20,000 nucleotides of DNA from an uncultured Methanosarcinales archaeon (lineage in GTDB: Archaea; Nanobdellota; Nanobdellia; Woesearchaeales; DSVV01). Positions 1 through 16,745 of the stretch are shown one piece after another (position 1 is the stretch's first letter; each line of letters begins with the position of its first letter). The stretch covers positions 50,340-70,339 of the forward strand of contig CAZQHZ010000004.1 of NCBI GenBank assembly GCA_964593285.1. Direction: 5' to 3'. The notes beneath the pieces are model-generated. The model searched no databases, was not told the DNA's origin, and saw nothing but the letters and a program-made list of their open reading frames with translations. The position numbers were made by a program, and so were the translations under genes.

Positions 1-1
1 A

Positions 2-430
2 ATTGAGGATACTTTTGATAAAAAAATTCTTGAAAATGAATTGGTTGAATTAATAAATAAAGTTTATGAAGATTTGAAAAATAGATATTTTAAAACATTG
101 AGTATTAAAATTAGATATTCAAATTTTAACACAATTACAAGGGATATAACACTAAAAACACCTGTTAATTCAAAAAAAATAATTATTGAAAATACACTAA
201 AACTTTTTAATGTATCTTATAGTAGTCAAAATAAAAAAATTACTAATACAAAAAATAATTATACTAATAATTACAATAGTATTAGTAATAATGTTACTAA
301 AAATTTTAATATTGTTAATGATGATAATACTACGAATAGTGGTTATAATAAAATAAGGCTTTTAGGAATAAAATTGAGTAATTTGATGAATGAAAAAGAA
401 ATTCAAACGAATTTGTTAGACTTTTTTTAA
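2..430 (+). CDS. dinB: DNA polymerase IV (Y-family), C-terminal little-finger region; 5' partial
   Basis: The frame is open from the window start (IEDTFDKK...). It shows IMS_C-type motifs FKTLSIKIRYSNFNTITR and IRLLGIKLSNL, and ends in a canonical PIP box, QTNLLDFF. Confidence 0.85.
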   Translation: MEDTFDKKILENELVELINKVYEDLKNRYFKTLSIKIRYSNFNTITRDITLKTPVNSKKIIIENTLKLFNVSYSSQNKKITNTKNNYTNNYNSISNNVTKNFNIVNDDNTTNSGYNKIRLLGIKLSNLMNEKEIQTNLLDFF

Positions 431-455
431 TTTATATTAAATTTTAATAATAATA

Positions 456-1286
456 TTAAAAAGGAATGAAACATAAAAGTCCTGTAATAATTAAAACAAT
501 TGAAATTATTTTTTGTAATAATTCTTGATTTATTTTATAGATAATTTTTGTTCCAACAAATGCACCTAAAATAACACCTGGGACTGCAAAGATTAAAATA
601 TCAAATGCTAAATATAAATCATTAATATTTGTTGTGAATAAATGGTAAAAGTGAGTTAAAGAAGTTGCTAATGTAGTAATTGCTATTATAAAAACAGTTG
701 TTGATACTATTGTTCTTAAATTAGAATTTGTTTTTTTAATTAAATTATATCCAAGTAATTCACCAAGACCTGCAGAAGTCATACCTAAAAATAAACTTCC
801 AATAGATGTATTAGCAATACATTTTTTTAAATCTTTTTCCTTTAATATAATTGATTTATCTGTTCTTTTAATACCAAATTTGATATCTGTAATTTTTTGA
901 CCCTTTTTAGTAATTGAAATAATATTTTTTAATAGTAATTTATAACCAATAAAAATTACAATAATTCCAAGCAAAATTCTAATAAAATATGGTGGAATGA
1001 TTGTTGATAAATAAGAACCAATTATTGCATATGGAATTGTTATTAATAAAAGAAAAATTCCTATATTATAATCTATTGTATTTTTTTTAATATATCTTAA
1101 AAGACCAGTAGTAAATCCAAAAAATTGAATCATTAAAGCTGATGCAATTGCAATATGGGGTTGTAATTTTAAAACTAAAATAAAAAAAGGAGAAAAAAAA
1201 GTTGCTCCACCAACTAAAGTTGACATTGCAATTGTTGCAATAATCATGCCTACTGGAAACATAAACCAATATTCAAAACTAACCAT
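456..1286 (-). CDS. Sulfite exporter TauE/SafE family membrane protein
   Basis: Multi-TM hydrophobic protein with VGGATFFSP, AGLGEL and PGVILGAFVG motifs. The ATG at 1286 is preferred over the TTG at 1301. Confidence 0.85.
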   Translation of the reverse strand: MVSFEYWFMFPVGMIIATIAMSTLVGGATFFSPFFILVLKLQPHIAIASALMIQFFGFTTGLLRYIKKNTIDYNIGIFLLLITIPYAIIGSYLSTIIPPYFIRILLGIIVIFIGYKLLLKNIISITKKGQKITDIKFGIKRTDKSIILKEKDLKKCIANTSIGSLFLGMTSAGLGELLGYNLIKKTNSNLRTIVSTTVFIIAITTLATSLTHFYHLFTTNINDLYLAFDILIFAVPGVILGAFVGTKIIYKINQELLQKIISIVLIITGLLCFIPF

Positions 1287-1439
1287 AAATTGTAATAACA
1301 AGGCTACATTTAAATAATTTTTTCAAAAAATGATGTTATTTTAAAATAGTAAAACAAAAAATTTATTAATTATTAATTAAATTTATTTTATTTAAGGTGG
1401 GAAAATATTTGGTAATTTATTTAATATCAATAATTTAAA

Positions 1440-3221
1440 ATGGAAAATGAAAATAATAGTACTGGATTTGAAAAAAATACTGATCTTGAAACAATACTTA
1501 AAATAAATTTTCCAGAAAATGTAATTCATGGAACTTTTCTTTGCGATATAAATCAAAATACAATTTTTATAAATGATGAATTTTCTAAAATTACAGGATA
1601 TAGTAAAGAAGAAATAATAGGAAAAAAAATATTAAATGAAAATTTATGGTTTAAAAAAGAAGATAGAAAAGAATATTTAAAAATACTTGATGAATTTGGA
1701 CGAGTAGATAAAGCAGTGGGTTATTTTAAAAAAAAAGATGATAAAATAATTCCAGTAACAATTTCTAGCACTTTTAATAAAACAAAAAAAAATGAAACAC
1801 TAGGCTATCAAGGGATTTTACAGGATTATAGTGAAATTTTAAATAATTTTTTTAAAATACAACTAGATAGATTAATGGAAAAACAAATCAATATTTTAGA
1901 TACTTTTACTTCAACAGATAATTTAGATGAATTAATTAAAGAAACAAATTATTGGCTTTCAAAAATTTTTTATGCAAAATCAAGTTCTATTTTTTTATAT
2001 GATTATGAACATAATAATTTTTTTTTAAAAAATGAAAATTATAAAAGGCTTGATGAAAAATTAATAATTAAACACGATAAAAATTCAAGAACGCCAATTA
2101 ATTATGCCATTAGAATGAACAAACCCTTAGTTGTATTAAATGGAAAAGCTTTAGTAAAAGAAAATAGAGAATCCATTGTTGAAAAGTCTAGAAAAATAAT
2201 TAAGTCAAATGAATCATATGAAAATATAATTTTAAAATCTCTTTTAAATGAAACTAATGAGAGTAATTATAAAATTTTAAAATTAGATGATTTATCACTT
2301 GAATTAAATGGTAATGAATATTATGAAAAACCAGAAAATTTTATTATAATACCACATGTTATAAAACAGCCAATTAATAAATTAACAGGTGTTATATGTT
2401 TATCAAATATTAATTCAAATGAAATATTTACATATATAAATCAACTTGAAAATAATCCAAAAGGAATTGGTAGTGCTAAAAAATTTGCACAAGAATTTTT
2501 TGTTGATGAGTCATATCAAAATAGCATTCATAATTTTTTTTTGAAAATGGCAAATCGAGTAGCGACAAATATTGGAACAAAAATTAAATCTGCTCAAAAT
2601 TATTCTATAATATTGGATCAATCAGAGCGAGATCATTTAACAGGACTTTATAATCAACGAAAAATGCATGAAATATTATCAAAAGATTTCAACAAAGTTA
2701 AAAAACACAATAATATAAAATGTGAAAAAAGAAAAGGTATTAAAAAAGATTTATCTTTAATCATGCTTGATTTAGATGATTTTAAAGAAATAAATGATAG
2801 GTATGGTCATGATATTGGCGATTTAACTTTGAAAAAAATAGGGAATAGACTTTATGAATGTGTTAGAGATGATGATTATATATTTAGATACGGTGGAGAA
2901 GAATTTTTAATTTCATTATATAATGCAGATTTAAATGTTAGTAAAAAAATATCTAAAAGACTATTAGATACAATTTCTAAATATGTTTCATTAGACATAA
3001 AAAAAGATTTATTAAATAAATGTGTTGATGAAAAAAAATTAGATGAGTTAATTCCAAGACAAATAACTGCAAGTATTGGAATTTCTAATTATAATGAAAA
3101 TAAAGTAAAAACATATCAAGAATTAATAAAAAATGCAGATCTTGCTTTATATAATTCTAAAAAATGTGGTAAAAATAGGTTTTGTTGTTATGATAAAACT
3201 TTGGTAGAAAAATTAAAATAA
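1440..3221 (+). CDS. PAS-GAF-GGDEF diguanylate cyclase (soluble)
   Basis: PAS: INDEFSKITGYSKEEIIGK. GAF-like middle region: SSSIFLYD...FIIIP...LTGVICLSN...MANRVA. GGDEF: DHLTGLYN, DLDDFKEINDRYGHDIGD, RDDDYIFRYGGEEF, TASIGIS, ADLALYNSKKCGKN. Confidence 0.95.
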   Translation: MENENNSTGFEKNTDLETILKINFPENVIHGTFLCDINQNTIFINDEFSKITGYSKEEIIGKKILNENLWFKKEDRKEYLKILDEFGRVDKAVGYFKKKDDKIIPVTISSTFNKTKKNETLGYQGILQDYSEILNNFFKIQLDRLMEKQINILDTFTSTDNLDELIKETNYWLSKIFYAKSSSIFLYDYEHNNFFLKNENYKRLDEKLIIKHDKNSRTPINYAIRMNKPLVVLNGKALVKENRESIVEKSRKIIKSNESYENIILKSLLNETNESNYKILKLDDLSLELNGNEYYEKPENFIIIPHVIKQPINKLTGVICLSNINSNEIFTYINQLENNPKGIGSAKKFAQEFFVDESYQNSIHNFFLKMANRVATNIGTKIKSAQNYSIILDQSERDHLTGLYNQRKMHEILSKDFNKVKKHNNIKCEKRKGIKKDLSLIMLDLDDFKEINDRYGHDIGDLTLKKIGNRLYECVRDDDYIFRYGGEEFLISLYNADLNVSKKISKRLLDTISKYVSLDIKKDLLNKCVDEKKLDELIPRQITASIGISNYNENKVKTYQELIKNADLALYNSKKCGKNRFCCYDKTLVEKLK

Positions 3222-3222
3222 A

Positions 3223-3927
3223 TTATATTTTATAAACATATAAGATATCATTTTTATTTTCTTTATCACTTAATATATCAAAGGTTGCGATAGGTTTTAT
3301 TTTTGAATATGGATTCATTATTTTTGCAGTTGGATTTTTATCACCATTAACACTTAATAGATAACCATTTTTAGATACTGCATAGGGTTTTGAAGCACAG
3401 CCACATGATAAAACAACTTGTAAATCAACCTTTTTGATTCCATCATCATATAATGATTTATATTCATTGTCCCTACAAATTTCAATTCCGCAAGTTTTTA
3501 TATTTTTAAAATTTAAATCAAAAATTCCTGTTTTTTCTCCTTTAAAAAATTTTTTTTTAACATCATAATTAAAATGATCATCTTCACCATAATCTTTCCT
3601 TGCACAAAGATTTTTTTTATCATATTCAAAAATAATTTCTCCATTTAGTGCAACATGGGCTCTATTATGGGTTATATATTTATTGTTTTCTTTTTCTCCT
3701 AAAATAAAACTAGTTCCAGGTATTAACAATAAATCTTTTTTTAATTTACTCAAAGATTTAATCTCATCTACTGAAATATTTGTATATTCTGATGAAACAA
3801 GCATGTCAAGATTAATTGTTTTATTCGAAGAATTTTTCAATTCGTTTGTTAAAATTTTATGAATACCTTTACTTGCATTGGTATTTTTTTTCCCAAATGT
3901 TTGATAAGCATAAAGTCCTATGTACAT
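3223..3927 (-). CDS. Carbon-nitrogen hydrolase (nitrilase superfamily), divergent
   Basis: Putative E-K-C triad in the motifs DMLVSSEY, YDKKNL and GIEICRD. Confidence 0.75.
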   Translation of the reverse strand: MYIGLYAYQTFGKKNTNASKGIHKILTNELKNSSNKTINLDMLVSSEYTNISVDEIKSLSKLKKDLLLIPGTSFILGEKENNKYITHNRAHVALNGEIIFEYDKKNLCARKDYGEDDHFNYDVKKKFFKGEKTGIFDLNFKNIKTCGIEICRDNEYKSLYDDGIKKVDLQVVLSCGCASKPYAVSKNGYLLSVNGDKNPTAKIMNPYSKIKPIATFDILSDKENKNDILYVYKI

Positions 3928-4049
3928 AATTAACTTTTAGTATAAGTAGTATTTAAAGTTTTTGATTTTTACTACTTTTTAGTAATTTAATTTAGAATTA
4001 GTTGGTGAAATGATAAAATTATTATATAAAGACGAAATATTCTATAAAA

Positions 4050-4712
4050 ATGACGATTAAAGAAAATTTGGATTTTATTAATAAACAAATTAGAGAAACT
4101 TGCGTTATTTCTGATAGAAATTATGATGATGTTAAATTAATAGCAGTTACAAAATCTGCATCAATTGATAAAATAAATGAATTAATTAAATGTGGTGTTA
4201 AAAGAATTGCCGAATCAAGAGTTAAACGAGCAAAAGAAATTTTTGAAAATTTATCGTCTAATTTTGGATATGATATTGAAAAGCATATGATTGGGCATTT
4301 ACAATCAAATAAAGTTAAAACTGCTGTTGAAATTTTTGATGTAATACAAAGTGTTGATTCATTAAAATTAGCAAATAAAATTAACAAAACCGCATTTGAA
4401 ATGCAAAAAGTGATTAAAATTATGCTACAAGTAAATATTTCAAATGAGAAGCAAAAGTTTGGTTTTAATAGTGAAGAAATATTTGAAATTTATAAAAAAA
4501 TGCTTAAATTTACTAATTTAAAGATAATTGGAATAATGGCTATGGCACCTTTTACTAAAAAAGAAAATACTAGAAAATATTTTAGTGAAGCAAAAAAAAT
4601 ATTTGATGAATTAAAATTAAAGGAATTATCCATTGGTATGAGTAATGATTTTGATATTGCAATAGAGGAAGGTGCAACTATGATTCGAGTTGGACGAATG
4701 ATATTTAATTAA
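4050..4712 (+). CDS. yggS: PLP homeostasis protein YggS/PLPBP
   Basis: Motifs LIAVTK (PLP Lys), HMIGHLQSNK, IQSVDS, QVNIS..QKFG, GIMAMAP and LSIGMSNDFDIAIEEGATMIRVG. Confidence 0.95.
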   Translation: MTIKENLDFINKQIRETCVISDRNYDDVKLIAVTKSASIDKINELIKCGVKRIAESRVKRAKEIFENLSSNFGYDIEKHMIGHLQSNKVKTAVEIFDVIQSVDSLKLANKINKTAFEMQKVIKIMLQVNISNEKQKFGFNSEEIFEIYKKMLKFTNLKIIGIMAMAPFTKKENTRKYFSEAKKIFDELKLKELSIGMSNDFDIAIEEGATMIRVGRMIFN

Positions 4713-4715
4713 TTT

Positions 4716-5561
4716 TTATTTTAGATTTATTCTATTTATACTACGTGAAATAATATTTATATCTAAAACATGAGGATTTAATGAATTATTGTGATTTCCT
4801 GGGGCTGTAGAAATAGTGTCTTTAATTCTGTCAATAAAATTACCACTTTTTTCAACTGTTTCATGAATGTGACCATGTAGCGTTAAATAAGGTTGATAAT
4901 TTTCAATAGCCATTCTAATTGCAAGACTTCCAATATGTTCATTTGAGTATGCTAAATCTAAGTTAGTATTATAAGGAGGAGAGTGAAAAACATAAATTGT
5001 TTTTTGTGGTTTTGATAAATTAAATAATTCTTTCATGTCATTTTCTATTGAATCTTCATCAGTGTAATTAAAAATTTTAGATTCATACCTCATATTTACT
5101 GTAGTAACACCAGTTAATAAAATTTCTTTTTTTGTATCAAAAATATTTCTTAATTTTATGTTTTCTAAATCCCATTTTTCAAAATCTTTTAATTTAAATG
5201 GGCTAATAGGCACATAAGGGTAGCCTGCAATAGAGAAGTTATTATCTAATTTTATAACTTTATTTATAATAATATTAAATAAATCATCATCATATTTATT
5301 AAAAATATCCATAATTCCAGCATAATCTTCATTACCTGGGATTAAAAAAATTTTAATTTTTCTATTAATTTTTTTTAATTCTTTAAGATTTGGAATAAAA
5401 AAGGTTTCAAGAAAATCACGTTGTTCATTCATACTTTTAGTTAAGCCTTTTTGGCAAATATCACCGCCAAATACTAAATAATCAAAATTTTTAGCATAAT
5501 TAAAAATTTTATTATATTGAAAAGTATTTCCATGAATATCTGCACAAAATAGTAATCTCAT
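4716..5561 (-). CDS. Calcineurin-like metallophosphoesterase (Icc-related), 281 aa
   Basis: Motifs ADIHG, GGDI, PGNED, FHSPP and HGHIHE. The start is moved to ATG 5561 (MRLLFCAD), which follows an SD-like AGAGGTG. The 41-aa extension in the ORF track overlaps a divergent gene and its promoter. Confidence 0.9.
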   Translation of the reverse strand: MRLLFCADIHGNTFQYNKIFNYAKNFDYLVFGGDICQKGLTKSMNEQRDFLETFFIPNLKELKKINRKIKIFLIPGNEDYAGIMDIFNKYDDDLFNIIINKVIKLDNNFSIAGYPYVPISPFKLKDFEKWDLENIKLRNIFDTKKEILLTGVTTVNMRYESKIFNYTDEDSIENDMKELFNLSKPQKTIYVFHSPPYNTNLDLAYSNEHIGSLAIRMAIENYQPYLTLHGHIHETVEKSGNFIDRIKDTISTAPGNHNNSLNPHVLDINIISRSINRINLK

Positions 5562-5648
5562 AAAAAATACACCTCTTTTTATATATATTTTATTTATTTT
5601 TATTTTAAATAAATAAATATTTATATAAATGTTGTTTTTTAACAAAAT

Positions 5649-5804
5649 ATGAAATGTGATATTTGTGGTAAAAAAATAGAACAAAATTTCCTTGATAAAT
5701 TTTTTGGAACTTATGTTAAAAATTCAAAAAATAAAAAAAAAATAATTTGCAATCAATGTCAAAAAAATTTATCAAAAGAAGAAATTTTAGAAAAAATAAA
5801 TTAA
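5649..5804 (+). CDS. Small Zn-finger protein, 51 aa (not in ORF track)
   Basis: Hand translation gives MKCDICGKKIEQNFLDKFFGTYVKNSKNKKKIICNQCQKNLSKEEILEKIN*, with two CxxC motifs. TTTATATA lies about 21 nt upstream. Confidence 0.8.
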   Translation: MKCDICGKKIEQNFLDKFFGTYVKNSKNKKKIICNQCQKNLSKEEILEKIN

Positions 5805-5908
5805 GCCCTTGTAGCATAGAAGCCATTGCGGCAGATTAAGTATAATTTGTTTAACTTAAGTCGAATTTCGTAAACTGCAGGTCGTGAGTGCAATTCTCAC
5901 CAAGGGCT
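5805..5908 (+). tRNA. tRNA-Thr(CGT) with 31-nt non-canonical intron at 30/31 (5835-5865)
   Basis: Acceptor stem GCCCTTG/CAAGGGC with discriminator T. T-stem GTGAG/CTCAC. After intron removal the anticodon arm reads GCAGT-TT CGT AA-ACTGC. A BHB-like splice motif is present. Confidence 0.9.
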
Positions 5909-5940
5909 TTTCTAATAATTAATAAAAAATAAATTTTCAA

Positions 5941-6774
5941 ATGCAATCTGAAAACATAAAGGAAAAAATTGTGAATTCAAAAAAAATAATTTCAAGTTTT
6001 ATTAATCATAAACATATTTTTTTAAAATCAAGAGGAAATTGTGCAATTTTAGATTCATTAAATTATGTTACGAAAATTAGTAAAAAAAAGAATATTTTAA
6101 TACAAGATCAAGGTGGGTGGCTTACTTATAAAAAATATCCAAAAAAATGTGATTTAAAAGTTTTAGAGTTAAAAACAGATTATGGGATTATTAATTTAAA
6201 TGAATTAGAAAAAAAAGCAAAAATTGCGGCTGCAATACTTTATCAAAATCCTGCTGGGTATATTGCAAATCAGCCTATTAAAGAGATTTATGAAATTTGT
6301 AAAAAAAATAATTGTAAAGTTATATTAGATGTTACAGGCTGCATTGGTGATAAAAATTTATGTAATGGGTTATATGCTGATGTTATTGTTTCAAGTTTTG
6401 GTACTGGAAAAATTGTTAATTTAGGTTATGGAGGATTTATTTCGTTTTTAACAGAAAATAAATTTGATATTTTAGAAGATTTTGACAGTAAATATTTCGA
6501 AGAATTAGTTGATAAATTAAATAATGCAAAAAATCGGCTTGATAAATTGTATAAATTGTCTATAAATGTAAAAAAAGATTTAAAAAAATTAAATTTAAAT
6601 ATAGTTCATCATGAAAAAATTGGAATAAATGTTGTTGTATTGTTTAATAATATATTTGAAAAAGAAAAAATATTAAATTATTGTAAAAATAAAAATTTTG
6701 AATATACAATTTGCCCAAGATATATAAGAATTTTAGATGATGCAATTTCTATTGAATTAAAACGTATTTTGTAA
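5941..6774 (+). CDS. PLP-dependent fold-type I enzyme, DegT/DnrJ-like, short form
   Basis: Motifs YQNPAGY, EICKKNNCKVILDVTGCIG and VSSFGTGKIVNLGYGGFI (PLP-Lys motif). Confidence 0.75.
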   Translation: MQSENIKEKIVNSKKIISSFINHKHIFLKSRGNCAILDSLNYVTKISKKKNILIQDQGGWLTYKKYPKKCDLKVLELKTDYGIINLNELEKKAKIAAAILYQNPAGYIANQPIKEIYEICKKNNCKVILDVTGCIGDKNLCNGLYADVIVSSFGTGKIVNLGYGGFISFLTENKFDILEDFDSKYFEELVDKLNNAKNRLDKLYKLSINVKKDLKKLNLNIVHHEKIGINVVVLFNNIFEKEKILNYCKNKNFEYTICPRYIRILDDAISIELKRIL

Positions 6775-6796
6775 ATTTTTTTGGCATATAAATTTT

Positions 6797-6988
6797 TTAT
6801 TCTTTTGAATCAAGATTATGTCCAATTAAACTTAATAAAGAAGTGATACCTATTACAAACAATCCTGTATTTTTATAAAAATAGCCCAAAGTAATTCCTG
6901 ATGCTGCACCAATTATGCAAAAAGTAATTAAAAATTTATTTCGTTTTAATAAATTTAAAAATTTATTTTCTTTTTTTTTATAGTACAT
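6797..6988 (-). CDS. Small two-TM membrane protein, hypothetical
   Basis: 63-aa ORF with a basic N-terminus and two hydrophobic segments. A TATA-like TTATAAA lies about 22 nt upstream. Confidence 0.6.
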   Translation of the reverse strand: MYYKKKENKFLNLLKRNKFLITFCIIGAASGITLGYFYKNTGLFVIGITSLLSLIGHNLDSKE

Positions 6989-7114
6989 ATAAAAATTAAT
7001 ATATTAATCATTTATAAGTTTTTTGAAAAATAAAATTACTATTTTTGAGTGTTTTTTAAAAATAAAAACAAAAAACATTTAAATGGTTTGATTTTTCTGA
7101 CAAATTGATTAAAT

Positions 7115-7495
7115 ATGGGAATTTCACAAGCAAAATCAAAAAGAAGTCCAACAGGAAAAAGATTAAACGATTATCGGAAAAAAAAACAATTTGAAACCGG
7201 TAAGTTACCAGTTTTAACAAAAATTGGACAAACTAAAAAAAAAATAACCAGAACAATTGGTGGAAATAGCAAAGAAATGCTTTTAAATGCAGAATTTGTT
7301 AATGTTTTAGATCCAAAAAATAAAACATCTAGTAAAACTAAATTGTTAAATGTTTTAGAAAATGAAGCTAATAGAAACTTTATTAGAAGAAATATTTTAA
7401 CAAAAGGAACAATTGTTAAAACAGAAAAAGGAAAAGTTAAAATAACTAATAGACCAGGTCAAGAAGGAACAGTTAATGGTATTTTAGTTGAATAA
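7115..7495 (+). CDS. rps8e: 30S ribosomal protein S8e
   Basis: Motifs SKRSPTGKR, RTIGGN, NRNFIRRNILTKGTIV and ITNRPGQEGTVNGIL. Confidence 0.97.
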   Translation: MGISQAKSKRSPTGKRLNDYRKKKQFETGKLPVLTKIGQTKKKITRTIGGNSKEMLLNAEFVNVLDPKNKTSSKTKLLNVLENEANRNFIRRNILTKGTIVKTEKGKVKITNRPGQEGTVNGILVE

Positions 7496-7497
7496 AA

Positions 7498-7947
7498 TTA
7501 AATTATTTCTTTTTTTAAATCATTTAATATAATATTTCTTCCAATCAATTTAATATTTTTGTTATTTATTGTTATTTTTTTAAAAAATTTAGTTTTAACA
7601 ATTAAATAATCTATTTCTTTATTTTCATCAATCATTGCTACATTGACTATTTTTCCAATATAGTCTCCTTTTCTATCAAATACTAATAAACCTAAATATT
7701 TTGTTTTTGGAGTGTGAGAAATGAAAACCGTGTCAATTCCAAAATTTATTATTAGATTAATACCAACAAAAAGCGTTGCTTTTAAAAAACCAGTATCTAT
7801 GCTCATTCCAATTATTTTTTTCTTTTTTTTGTCTATGTGAAGTTTAGTTATAATACCAATTAAATTTCCTTTTGAATCGATAACATCTTTACCTAATATA
7901 TCATCTGAAGTTATTATAAATTTATCAAATAATTCTTTTTCTTCCAT
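7498..7947 (-). CDS. Tandem PRC-barrel domain protein
   Basis: Two repeats: DILGKDVIDSKGNLIGII...GIDTVFI and YLGLLVFDRKGDYIGKIVNV...IGRNIIL. Confidence 0.85.
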   Translation of the reverse strand: MEEKELFDKFIITSDDILGKDVIDSKGNLIGIITKLHIDKKKKKIIGMSIDTGFLKATLFVGINLIINFGIDTVFISHTPKTKYLGLLVFDRKGDYIGKIVNVAMIDENKEIDYLIVKTKFFKKITINNKNIKLIGRNIILNDLKKEII

Positions 7948-8075
7948 TATTTAATTAAATTTTATCTATAATATAAATTTTTTGATTGTTATTTTCTAAA
8001 TAATTAAAAAAATTACTAATTTTAATTAGTTTTTACAAAAAATATTAAAATAAATTGTAAAACCTCTTAGTTTGT

Positions 8076-14761: not shown

Positions 14762-14899
14762 TTTTTTATTTTTTATCTCTTTTATTCTTTTTTTCATAAA
14801 TGCAATTTGAAATGCCATAGTTATTCTTCCAACAATTACTCCAATTATAAAAATTAAAAGTGAAATTGTTATTGCTTGAATATTTATTTGTTCAAACAT
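14747..14899 (-). CDS. Small single-pass membrane protein, 50 aa (not in ORF track)
   Basis: Hand translation gives MFEQINIQAITISLLIFIIGVIVGRITMAFQIAFMKKRIKEIKNKKSRKP*. It fills the top6A-primase gap and its start overlaps the primase 3' end. Confidence 0.65.
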   Translation of the reverse strand: MFEQINIQAITISLLIFIIGVIVGRITMAFQIAFMKKRIKEIKNKKSRKP

Positions 14900-16515
14900 T
14901 TTTTTTCTTCTCTAAATTTTTTCCTCATTTCTTTTTGCTCTTTTGTTAATTTTTTTCGGTGGCTTTTATCGGTGTTATTTAATTTTGATTTTAAAACTGA
15001 ATAATTTACTGGATTTTTTATTTTTTGACAAAAATTATCAGGAATACAAATTCCTAAATCTCTATAATAGCTTTTATTATCACAGTTTGGTGGGAGTATT
15101 TTTTTTTTTGAATATTTTCTATAATTTATTTGTGAATTTATTATTGTTTTTCTTAAATTTTCTGTATTTTTTAAATTCCATTCATCAATAATTTTATTTA
15201 TTCTCTCAAATCCATAGCCTGTATTTATAAAAAAGTTTAATAAAATAAATAAACCTCGTTTTCGTCCATCATCTAATCCATTTAGTATTTTATTAATACA
15301 TGGAGGAAATAATTCTTTTGGAATTTCATTTTCAATTTCATAATTTTTTTCATCATCATTTTCTAATTTTGAAAAAATTTTATTTTTATTATAAAAATCA
15401 TATGTATTTTGTGTAATTTTATTTGTTTGATTTTTTACTTTTAATGCTTCTTGTATTAAAAATGTGCCTTCTGATTGTGTTGTATTTTTTGTATCTAAAA
15501 ATTTATGTTTTGAAATTTTTAAATTTTTAGGATTTGCATATTCTTTTTTAAAATGTAAAATTTTTTCAGGATTAAATGGAATCGATGCAAGGTTTGATTT
15601 TTCATGTAATGAATAAACTAATCTATATAAATGCCTTGAAGAAATTAATAAAGTATCCAAATCAATTAGTGCTGCTGCATTTAATACGTTAAATGATTCA
15701 TTTGATCCACATTGACATATATTATCTTTACTTATTTCTTTTTTTTCCATTACACTATTACATTTATCACAAATCATGTATTCTTTTGAATCAAATAGGT
15801 TATTATTGCAATTTATACAAATAAATTGATGTTTAACATTATTGTCTTTTTCTTCAGAAATAATCTTTTCACATTTTAAGCATTTTTTTTGGACTAATTC
15901 ATCAAATTTTATGTTTAAATTTTTTGCTAAATAGTCAAAATTAAACTTATAATGTTTATTGAAAATAACTTCATTATCTTTTATATCAATCATATTTTTT
16001 GAGATATAATCAATTAAATAATATGAAATATTTCTACATAAATCTGGAAATTGATTTTTAGTTTCTATATTATCAACAGATTTTGGAAATGCATTAAATG
16101 GAACTGCTACATGAAAACCTTTGTTTCCTGAAAATTTTACTGAAATTGATTTTATTTTGTGTTTTTTTAAACATTCAATAATTAGCCATGTTATAATTTT
16201 TGATATTTTCCAATCACTACAATCAATATCTAAAATTAAATCCCATCCAATTCGTAAATCATCTAATTCTTTTTTTTTCATCCCTGTAACAATTTGCAAG
16301 GGATTTTTCCATAATTCTTCTGAAACGTGAAATGATGTTGCATAATTTTTTGCAAATTCTATTATATCTTTTGGATAAATTAATGTGTCTGGACGTTTTC
16401 CAAATCCTTTATCTGCATATTTAACAGCAACCTCTTTATTTTGTGAAGCAATTAACATTTCTTTTTGAATGTCTTCTCGTTTATAATGTCTAAGACATGT
16501 ACCAATATCCACCAT
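14884..16515 (-). CDS. Fused DNA primase PriS-PriL
   Basis: PriS motifs WDLILDID, FSGNKGFHV and RHLYRLVYSLH. PriL C-terminal Fe-S motifs FPPCI, PPNC, CIPDNFC and KNPVNY. Confidence 0.9.
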   Translation of the reverse strand: MVDIGTCLRHYKREDIQKEMLIASQNKEVAVKYADKGFGKRPDTLIYPKDIIEFAKNYATSFHVSEELWKNPLQIVTGMKKKELDDLRIGWDLILDIDCSDWKISKIITWLIIECLKKHKIKSISVKFSGNKGFHVAVPFNAFPKSVDNIETKNQFPDLCRNISYYLIDYISKNMIDIKDNEVIFNKHYKFNFDYLAKNLNIKFDELVQKKCLKCEKIISEEKDNNVKHQFICINCNNNLFDSKEYMICDKCNSVMEKKEISKDNICQCGSNESFNVLNAAALIDLDTLLISSRHLYRLVYSLHEKSNLASIPFNPEKILHFKKEYANPKNLKISKHKFLDTKNTTQSEGTFLIQEALKVKNQTNKITQNTYDFYNKNKIFSKLENDDEKNYEIENEIPKELFPPCINKILNGLDDGRKRGLFILLNFFINTGYGFERINKIIDEWNLKNTENLRKTIINSQINYRKYSKKKILPPNCDNKSYYRDLGICIPDNFCQKIKNPVNYSVLKSKLNNTDKSHRKKLTKEQKEMRKKFREEKKCLNK

Positions 16516-16628: not shown

Positions 16629-16745
16629 GCCTCCATAGCTTAGCAGGTAGAGCGTGCGGCTGTTATCCTCACTAACGCTTGGGTCTTCCCAAACGTTGTT
16701 TGGTAAGTAACCGCAAGGTCACCAGTTCGAGTCTGGTTGGAGGCG
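16629..16745 (+). tRNA. tRNA-Asn(GTT) with 44-nt intron at 37/38 (16666-16709)
   Basis: Acceptor stem GCCTCCA/TGGAGGC with G73. D-arm GCTT..GAGC. Anticodon arm TGCGG-CT GTT A^A-CCGCA. T-arm ACCAG-TTCGAGT-CTGGT. Confidence 0.93.

Follow-up and report, generated by a model that had tools for sequence, protein, structure and literature searches.

The 20,000-nucleotide stretch of archaeal DNA analysed here (the window; positions 50,340 to 70,339 of contig CAZQHZ010000004.1, assembly GCA_964593285.1) carries the gene for a PAS-GAF-GGDEF diguanylate cyclase, an enzyme of the class that makes cyclic di-GMP (c-di-GMP). As judged from its sequence, the gene is intact, with all catalytic and guanine-binding residues kept, and its product is likely an active cyclase. 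We also consider it reasonably probable that c-di-GMP is used as a signal inside this archaeon. Our preferred reading, which we regard as marginally probable, is that the protein is an active, product-inhibited cyclase whose c-di-GMP is read by a non-canonical receptor and shifts the cell from swimming to attachment. Taken as a separate claim, an output in motility or attachment is tentative, and control of attachment or symbiosis, put forward in a sequence-only reading of this DNA made by a model without database searches, can only be inferred.

The cyclase gene and its domains

The gene and its parts are listed below (P0002 is a relative described in the next section; pLDDT, predicted local distance difference test).

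1440..3221, + strand: PAS-GAF-GGDEF diguanylate cyclase gene, 593 amino acids (open reading frame list and profiles)
1515..1838, + strand: PAS domain, residues 26-133 (TIGR00229, E 2.2e-10; Pfam PAS_9 at residues 31-132, E 8.9e-9)
1887..2609, + strand: divergent GAF domain, residues ~150-390 (VIA-align, ESM Atlas, custom profile)
2145..2333, + strand: GAF insert 1, residues ~236-298 (variable, pLDDT <50; borders set by eye)
2412..2519, + strand: GAF insert 2, residues ~325-360 (two predicted helices; borders set by eye)
2508..2630, + strand: long helix from the GAF exit to the DxLT turn, a predicted signalling helix or coiled coil (models)
2631..3185, + strand: GGDEF domain, residues 398-582 (D444, K449, N452, D461, R483 and GGEEF at 485-489)
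2865..2876, + strand: RxxD I-site, R476-D479 (motif scan; kept in P0002)

The GGDEF domain matched PF00990 at residues 397-580 (E 3.4e-36; 124.9 bits against a cut-off of 23.8) and TIGR00254 at 135.3 bits (cut-off 37.4), and among the TIGR models every equivalog cut-off lay far above its score. The canonical motifs and feedback site that the sequence-only reading had listed were all found, namely DHLT (398-401), DLDDFK (444-449), NDRYGHDIGD (452-461) and the active-site GGEEF five residues after RDDD (476-479); the hallmarks of a class I cyclase (RxGG(D/E)EF, the metal-binding Asp, the guanine-binding N and D, the Lys and the DxLT turn) are present. R507, also kept in P0002, stands 31 residues past R476, just as PleD's third I-site arginine is spaced. 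GGDEF structures matched the predicted fold with a target template-modelling (TM) score of 0.71-0.81. With bacterial class I cyclases (DgcR 6zxm, DosC 4zve, PleD, WspR, Dcsbis 4zmu) the window protein has the fold, the motifs, the DxLT turn after the helix and RxxD in common, at ~25-30% identity in structural alignments; unlike those systems, its host lacks detectable EAL, HD-GYP, PilZ and MshEN partners. The GGDEF fold is likewise common to Hypr enzymes of the GSU1658/GacA type, which carry Ser where the window protein has Asp461. As this replacement in xxGD defines the Hypr type (PMC13725321), Asp461 rules out a Hypr (cyclic GMP-AMP synthase) identity, in line with what had been read from the GHxxGD motif.

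The input had been described as cytoplasmic PAS and GAF domains, and this description held: the PAS domain was recognised by profile and the GAF domain by fold, and the cyclase sequence contained neither a signal peptide nor a transmembrane segment (maximum Kyte-Doolittle 19-mer, 1.04). No Pfam GAF family matched the cyclase at E 0.1, because two inserts break the profile. A custom GAF profile matched residues 151-210 (E 1.3e-6), ESM Atlas ranked GAF clusters first for the middle region (features 0.93, structure TM 0.58), and VIA-align of the GAF model against 48,161 chains gave a Z of 13.6 to the PtsP GAF domain 3trc (root-mean-square deviation 3.6, 163 residues aligned) and, second, of 13.5 to the PDE6 GAF domain; the PtsP, PDE6, phytochrome and NifA GAF domains were among the fold matches, at 7-17% identity. 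The GAF model covered residues 131-399 and was built from a three-sequence alignment (pLDDT 53), and the full-length model was poor (pLDDT 53, predicted TM score 0.34) and was made on P0001, an allele differing by one residue. On these models, the middle region is a GAF fold. Identity to P0002 is 38% in insert 1, against 64-81% in the adjoining GAF core, and 39% in insert 2; across the protein, domain cores and linkers are 59-82% identical compared with 38-39% for the inserts, which suggests a purifying pattern of conserved cores and divergent inserts. The long helix spans residues 357-387 in the full-length model and 357-398 in the GAF model, and residues 361-397 are 68% identical to P0002.

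By established GGDEF chemistry, two GGDEF domains would each bind GTP with Mg2+ (D444, E487) and join the nucleotides to c-di-GMP, and c-di-GMP at R476, D479 and R507 would cap the output. The PAS domain and the insert-bearing GAF domain may hold a parallel dimer, in which a cytoplasmic cue would run down the helix before the DxLT turn and align the active sites. Turnover might be carried out, as a weaker step of the scheme, by a stand-alone DHH-DHHA1 protein or another generic phosphoesterase, an assignment made because no EAL or HD-GYP protein was found (see below). As the weakest step, the target could perhaps lie in the surface machinery encoded by the genome, be it the archaellum, the proteins of chemotaxis, the ATPases of the pili or the processive glycosyltransferases.

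Archaeal GGDEF proteins are known to show cyclase activity when expressed in bacterial reporters (Sidorov et al. 2026, PMC13725321); in the accessible text of that paper, KYK22704.1 and RJQ22058.1 (Woesearchaeota) were consistently active in three in vivo assays. With proteins considered there (RJQ22058.1, the Thermoplasmatales protein KYK22704.1 with PAS-PAS-GGDEF domains, KHO53915.1 and MBT3408960.1) the window protein shares an origin in archaeal or DPANN metagenome-assembled genomes (MAGs), GG(D/E)EF and the Asp in xxGD; PAS or GAF inputs and RxxD are also common to them, RxxD being functional in KYK22704.1. It differs in not being among the 11 proteins cloned in that work, as far as the accessible text goes (nine more were considered and left uncloned).

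Assembly and descent of the gene

We asked whether the gene is a genuine archaeal one, as the sequence-only reading had claimed from its AT-richness and setting. Its codon bias lies at the 32nd percentile among 146 open reading frames of similar length, and its GC content at third codon positions is 7.6%, against a genome median of 9.4%, so that the likeness to its neighbours is confirmed by native-like values of both. The same 70-kb contig encodes S8e, LonB, Rio1 and TopoVI downstream (Pfam) and, upstream, genes like those for aIF5B, FtsZ, EF-2 and EF-1a (names read from sequence). Among the best 80 relatives of the TopoVI A subunit, the closest, at 69-82% identity, are mostly Woesearchaeota, Nanoarchaeota and Nanobdellota records, and the set also includes many records labelled uncultured Methanosarcinales and some bacteria. 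The host is a Woesearchaeote, inferred to belong to the order Woesearchaeales, and its assembly (1.18 Mb, ~1,100 genes) is 95.9% complete and 0.12% contaminated. The core genes on the same contig, the Woesearchaeota-type TopoVI-A and the native codon use support a genuine DPANN gene.

Protein searches were made among 5.8 billion proteins, both restricted to lengths of 326-1038 amino acids. With the N-terminus as query, the only close relatives were P0002 (58% identity) and P0003 (45%), a PAS-GAF homologue of 360 amino acids that breaks off within the GAF region, lacks a GGDEF domain and may be a truncation or a stand-alone sensor; with the C-terminus as query, P0002 alone passed E 1e-25. P0002 keeps every catalytic residue and RxxD despite ~40% divergence. 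The combination of PAS with an insert-bearing GAF domain places the window protein in a tiny subfamily of its own, of which P0002 is the sole other member in these searches; scans of genomes and metagenomes found no genomic locus for P0002 or P0003. Bacterial GGDEF domains reach 33-38% identity (2 of 64 parts scanned, best 80 kept), so that no near-identical bacterial homologue appeared in this sample. On a quick IQ-TREE phylogeny of 63 of 211 domains, with three starred branches, the window gene joins only P0002. Clustering was seen for the Woesearchaeales label, which needs 11 changes against 20.1 when shuffled, clustering not being the same as a single clade. The phylogeny suggested at the outset groups the gene with P0002 and points to no donor.

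The integrity of the contig had also been singled out for checking, and the public-run contigs break at one short stretch.

2768..2798, + strand: 31-base stretch coding for LDLDDFKEIN, the break point of public-run contigs

This stretch is common to other sequence in the mat samples and is single-copy in the source genome. Positions 1-8000 were compared with three public metagenome runs of mats, drawn from two studies; one of these runs may be the source. The listed public holders of the sequence are microbial-mat metagenomes, with no RNA run among them. Pieces of run X1 cover 1-2797 and 2769-5465, and run X3, from the other study, covers pieces on either side of the break with few differences. 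Public runs thus support the contig on both sides of the break, but the listed pieces all end at the 31-base stretch, none spans the whole of it, and depths of 10.5, 8.0, 10.5 and 11.2 do not settle the pairing. We uphold the join because P0002 is 58-60% identical on either side of it and because three full-length 593-amino-acid alleles occur in separate assemblies, on contigs of 23,987, 41,153 and 70,339 bases. A chimeric assembly or a recently acquired bacterial fragment, for which the break and its unsettled depths speak, is ruled out in our judgement by the run pieces, the codon usage, the C-terminal search and the three alleles; with the low identity of bacterial GGDEF domains, these leave such an artefact largely refuted and very improbable. 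The same evidence indicates that the cyclase gene is native to, and long resident in, Woesearchaeota.

Makers and readers of c-di-GMP

According to an older view, GGDEF domains are nearly absent from archaea (PMC10086821; PMC10249747), and the sequence-only reading had likewise called active ones rare in characterised archaea. To place the window gene, we drew a sample of 301 genomes from the order (tallies include genomes G206, G183, G245, G210, G208, G132 and G121, which are marked unpublished). PF00990 matches occurred in 151 of these genomes, in 110 of the 223 of high quality and in 122 of 217 genera, and the positive genomes include G016, G025 and G085, each a single contig. In the host family, 25 of 28 genomes had a match. 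At E 1e-12, 138 of the 301 genomes pass; some weak matches are degenerate domains, and several genomes carry 2-8 matches. With archaeal activity already published (PMC13725321), the claim of rarity was overstated. The accessible text of Sidorov et al. contains no systematic survey and expects archaeal GGDEF proteins to be occasional and single-copy, in contrast to the half of sampled Woesearchaeales and the multiple copies seen here, and it lists phosphodiesterase co-occurrence, prevalence and receptors in archaea as open. Our literature search, with most subscription papers outside its coverage, found no order-wide GGDEF census; sediment-attached ultra-small prokaryotes, archaea not being separated, were described as richer in cyclases (PMC9938205, accessible text).

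Five key sites were kept in 105 of 134 distinct domains fetched and RxxD in 71, in a set biased to intact domains since mainly higher-scoring matches were fetched. A flanking open reading frame at least 40% identical to a source-genome protein was present at 75 of 116 loci, compared with 9 of 80 bacterial control loci; a few loci (L005, L026) have a bacterial appearance and could be contaminants of their bins. Among 93 longer proteins, the domains that accompany GGDEF included GAF (23), PocR (16), PAS (14), EAL (5), REC (4) and HD_5 (2). A 24-member clade (FastTree support 0.94; 24 genomes, 16 families) holds a PocR-GAF-GGDEF family, and a starred 8-row PocR-GAF group appeared on the quick IQ-TREE phylogeny. 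The window protein belongs to the same order and shares with this family the GAF-helix-GGDEF core and intact motifs, but it has PAS in place of PocR, falls outside the clade and lies at another locus. At 20 wide loci, mostly picked from this family, a YchF-like GTPase adjoins the cyclase in 11 and a DHH-DHHA1 gene is near in 6. The Obg/YchF-like GTPase, adenylate kinase-like and PhoU-like names used for these loci are in part tentative.

Known partners were scarcer than cyclases: HD_5 (HD-GYP-type) was matched in 76 of the 301 genomes, EAL in 6, MshEN in 3 and PilZ in 3. The GYP motif was present in 14 of the 19 top HD_5 proteins checked, and the strongest MshEN match came from G206, which also contributes one member of the 24-member clade. 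HD_5 was enriched with GGDEF (38 of 138 versus 14 of 163 genomes), and 85 of the 138 genomes with strong GGDEF matches had neither an HD_5 nor an EAL match, both counts coming from related genomes that are not independent. This pattern points to a hotspot of c-di-GMP makers in one order of DPANN, with almost no known readers. Taken alone, the window gene is one more example of an archaeal cyclase; the gap between makers and readers is a testable lead.

One explanation for so few readers is that the signal is aimed outward, so that a bacterial host to which the cell is attached, or its neighbours in the mat, would stop swimming or make matrix and the archaeon would need no receptor of its own, which fits the mat origin of the sequence holders as well as the numbers of cyclases, PilZ and MshEN and the 85 genomes without HD_5 or EAL. 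We think this improbable: the cyclase has no signal peptide or membrane segment, no exporter was identified, a level-capping I-site suits an internal signal, and HD-GYP proteins co-occur in part of the order.

The source genome contains a second intact cyclase on another contig (321 amino acids, RESD and GGEEF), and the search for partners of the two enzymes gave little. Searches of the genome, which is 95.9% complete, revealed no EAL or HD_5 phosphodiesterase, custom GGDEF and HD-GYP profiles gave no further significant match and only two generic HD proteins, and a search for the c-di-GMP riboswitch RF01051 gave no match there or in any control genome. Motifs known from bacteria, for the receptors RsiG, Cle, VpsT, BldD, GIL, PilZ, MshEN, cNMP and STING, scored at or below shuffle level or hit unrelated proteins. 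Of the archaeal c-di-GMP circuit proposed from the sequence alone, the cytoplasmic input thus stands, but for the circuit itself no EAL, HD-GYP, PilZ, MshEN or ComFB component was found in the genome. A stand-alone DHH-DHHA1 protein (C1:11528-12559) is homologous to one encoded near a PocR-GAF-GGDEF gene (26% identity, E 2e-16). We consider it a candidate c-di-GMP degrader because of this neighbourhood in a conserved family and because a mycobacterial DHH-DHHA1 enzyme cleaves c-di-GMP weakly (PMC9779919, accessible text).

Could the genes found so far be silent remnants? An orphan or nearly silent GGDEF protein, acquired long ago and kept as a scaffold or as a binder of GTP or c-di-GMP, would account for the missing degrader and receptor, for the very patchy subfamily and for P0003, which keeps PAS-GAF without GGDEF, and several MAG proteins had catalysis-independent phenotypes (PMC13725321, accessible text). 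However, all catalytic residues are kept in both the window cyclase and P0002 across their divergence, and a genome of 1.18 Mb retains two intact cyclases; this explanation, too, has a low probability in our view. A genome of this size with two cyclases is also small enough for a full binding screen, which could possibly yield the first archaeal receptor.

With the preferred reading, the question becomes what c-di-GMP could act on. The source genome encodes a full che operon, two methyl-accepting chemotaxis proteins, a number of histidine kinases as well as receivers, and five archaellins; it also has two loci for T2SSE ATPases, one of them beside CheY, CheC and KaiC-like genes, and three PgaC/CelA-like family 2 glycosyltransferases (GT2). 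A choice between swimming and attachment would therefore exist for c-di-GMP to act on, since the che operon, archaellins, pilus ATPases and GT2 are all present; CheF was not found in the genome.

The che and archaellin genes lie at C7:27.4-36 kb, C4:7.9-22.1 kb and C14:7-12.5 kb, the archaellins being scattered. Pilin, CheY, CheC and KaiC-like genes beside the T2SSE/T2SSF locus hint at another link between chemotaxis and motor. Across the sampled order, archaellin genes occur in 48 of 301 genomes, often in 4-11 copies.

Several observations weigh against the preferred reading. GGDEF was not associated with archaellins (19 of 47 versus 119 of 254, p 0.43, after removal of a single weak archaellin match). 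Homologues of the PgaC-like GT2 enzymes occur almost universally (73 of 80), with just 2 of the 12 closest orthologues in GGDEF-positive genomes, and GT2 has no support as an effector of c-di-GMP. The receptors PilZ, MshEN and ComFB were not found in the source genome, no neighbour of the window cyclase is functionally linked to it, and a search of 40 relatives for the PAS-GAF subfamily (N-terminal query) gave only weak PAS matches. According to the accessible text of the published work, c-di-GMP is yet to be detected inside an archaeon (PMC13725321; PMC10249747). Of the 11 MAG proteins that were cloned, just 2 showed consistent activity across the three assays, and 3 of 7 others gave a riboswitch signal (PMC13725321). 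Intact motifs do not guarantee output, because so few of the cloned proteins were consistently active (PMC13725321).

The lack of association with archaellins or GT2 would fit better if an active cyclase controlled some other internal state, for example nutrient- or ribosome-linked growth or dormancy, via another receptor. The inputs are cytoplasmic, and the PocR-GAF-GGDEF genes lie among housekeeping genes, with the Obg/YchF-like GTPase at 11 of 20 wide loci and adenylate kinase-like and PhoU-like genes near. However, this neighbourhood may be mere conserved synteny, the window gene lies at another slot, and no receptor has been identified for this role either; we rate it rather unlikely. A broader form of the preferred reading, drawing on the presence of cyclases in roughly half the genomes, their several copies and inputs, the vertically kept PocR-GAF family and the scarcity of PilZ, MshEN and EAL, would be a Woesearchaeales-wide c-di-GMP network with an undescribed receptor and removal by DHH-DHHA1, in which CheF-less chemotaxis, the archaellum or a pilus is switched from host search to attachment in the mat-dwelling species of the window. 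We hold this broader form to be doubtful.

One further protein was considered as a receptor. A winged helix-turn-helix (wHTH)-REC-degenerate GGDEF protein on contig C9 is conserved in the host family, and it is at most a weak lead, lacking both the GGDEF motif and RxxD. Its operon (C9:3493-10561, L313) contains a receiver, this protein, a HAMP-PAS histidine kinase and a receiver, and a GAF kinase comes next. The order of its first three genes is retained in L282, L284, L285 and L286.

Neighbouring genes and minor observations

The cyclase gene has one direct neighbour on each side, both on the opposite strand.

456..1301, - strand: TauE/SafE-family membrane protein, divergent neighbour (Pfam, E 1.2e-30)
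3223..3927, - strand: nitrilase/CN-hydrolase-like protein, convergent neighbour (weak match to the N-terminal part of an NAD+ synthase model, E 4.3e-7)

The gene had been placed between a DinB gene and archaeal core genes. DinB, S8e and the others are indeed there, and the DinB C-terminus QTNLLDFF fits the PIP-box consensus, but the direct neighbours are accessory rather than core genes: the TauE gene stands between DinB and the cyclase, and between the cyclase and the S8e gene (7115) lie the nitrilase-like gene and genes for a pyridoxal phosphate (PLP)-binding protein, a metallophosphoesterase and an aminotransferase. TauE of the window type also adjoins a GGDEF gene in genome G017 (L012:2041-2889); a TauE scan gave 14 loci, mostly bacterial. 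A PLP-binding, YggS-like gene lies near a GGDEF gene in G222 (L029:2994-3467), by chance or in a recurring slot. Upstream of the cyclase, a sigma-70 promoter scan gave hits at chance level and the region is too AT-rich for a TATA box to be called; no c-di-GMP riboswitch was found within the window (Rfam).

Elsewhere in the source genome, C22:10862-12142 (L315:7863-9143), with a receiver gene on one side and ribosomal-protein-like genes on the other, encodes a 427-amino-acid sigma-70-like protein with regions 2 and 4 (TIGR02937, 87.5 bits against a cut-off of 42.9; the best subfamily, FliA/WhiG, scored below its own cut-off). Open frames of ~10,000 amino acids with two weak GGDEF-like matches each were seen in G306 (C7) and G301 (C81, L281). 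Within the window, positions 16629-16745 (+ strand) hold a tRNA of 117 bases (Rfam match), apparently a tRNA-Asn(GTT) whose anticodon is followed by an intron; ARAGORN missed this tRNA without its intron mode. Positions 14884-16515 (- strand) encode a 543-amino-acid primase-like protein with weak small-subunit matches and a C-terminal Cys cluster, which we take to resemble a fused PriS-PriL.

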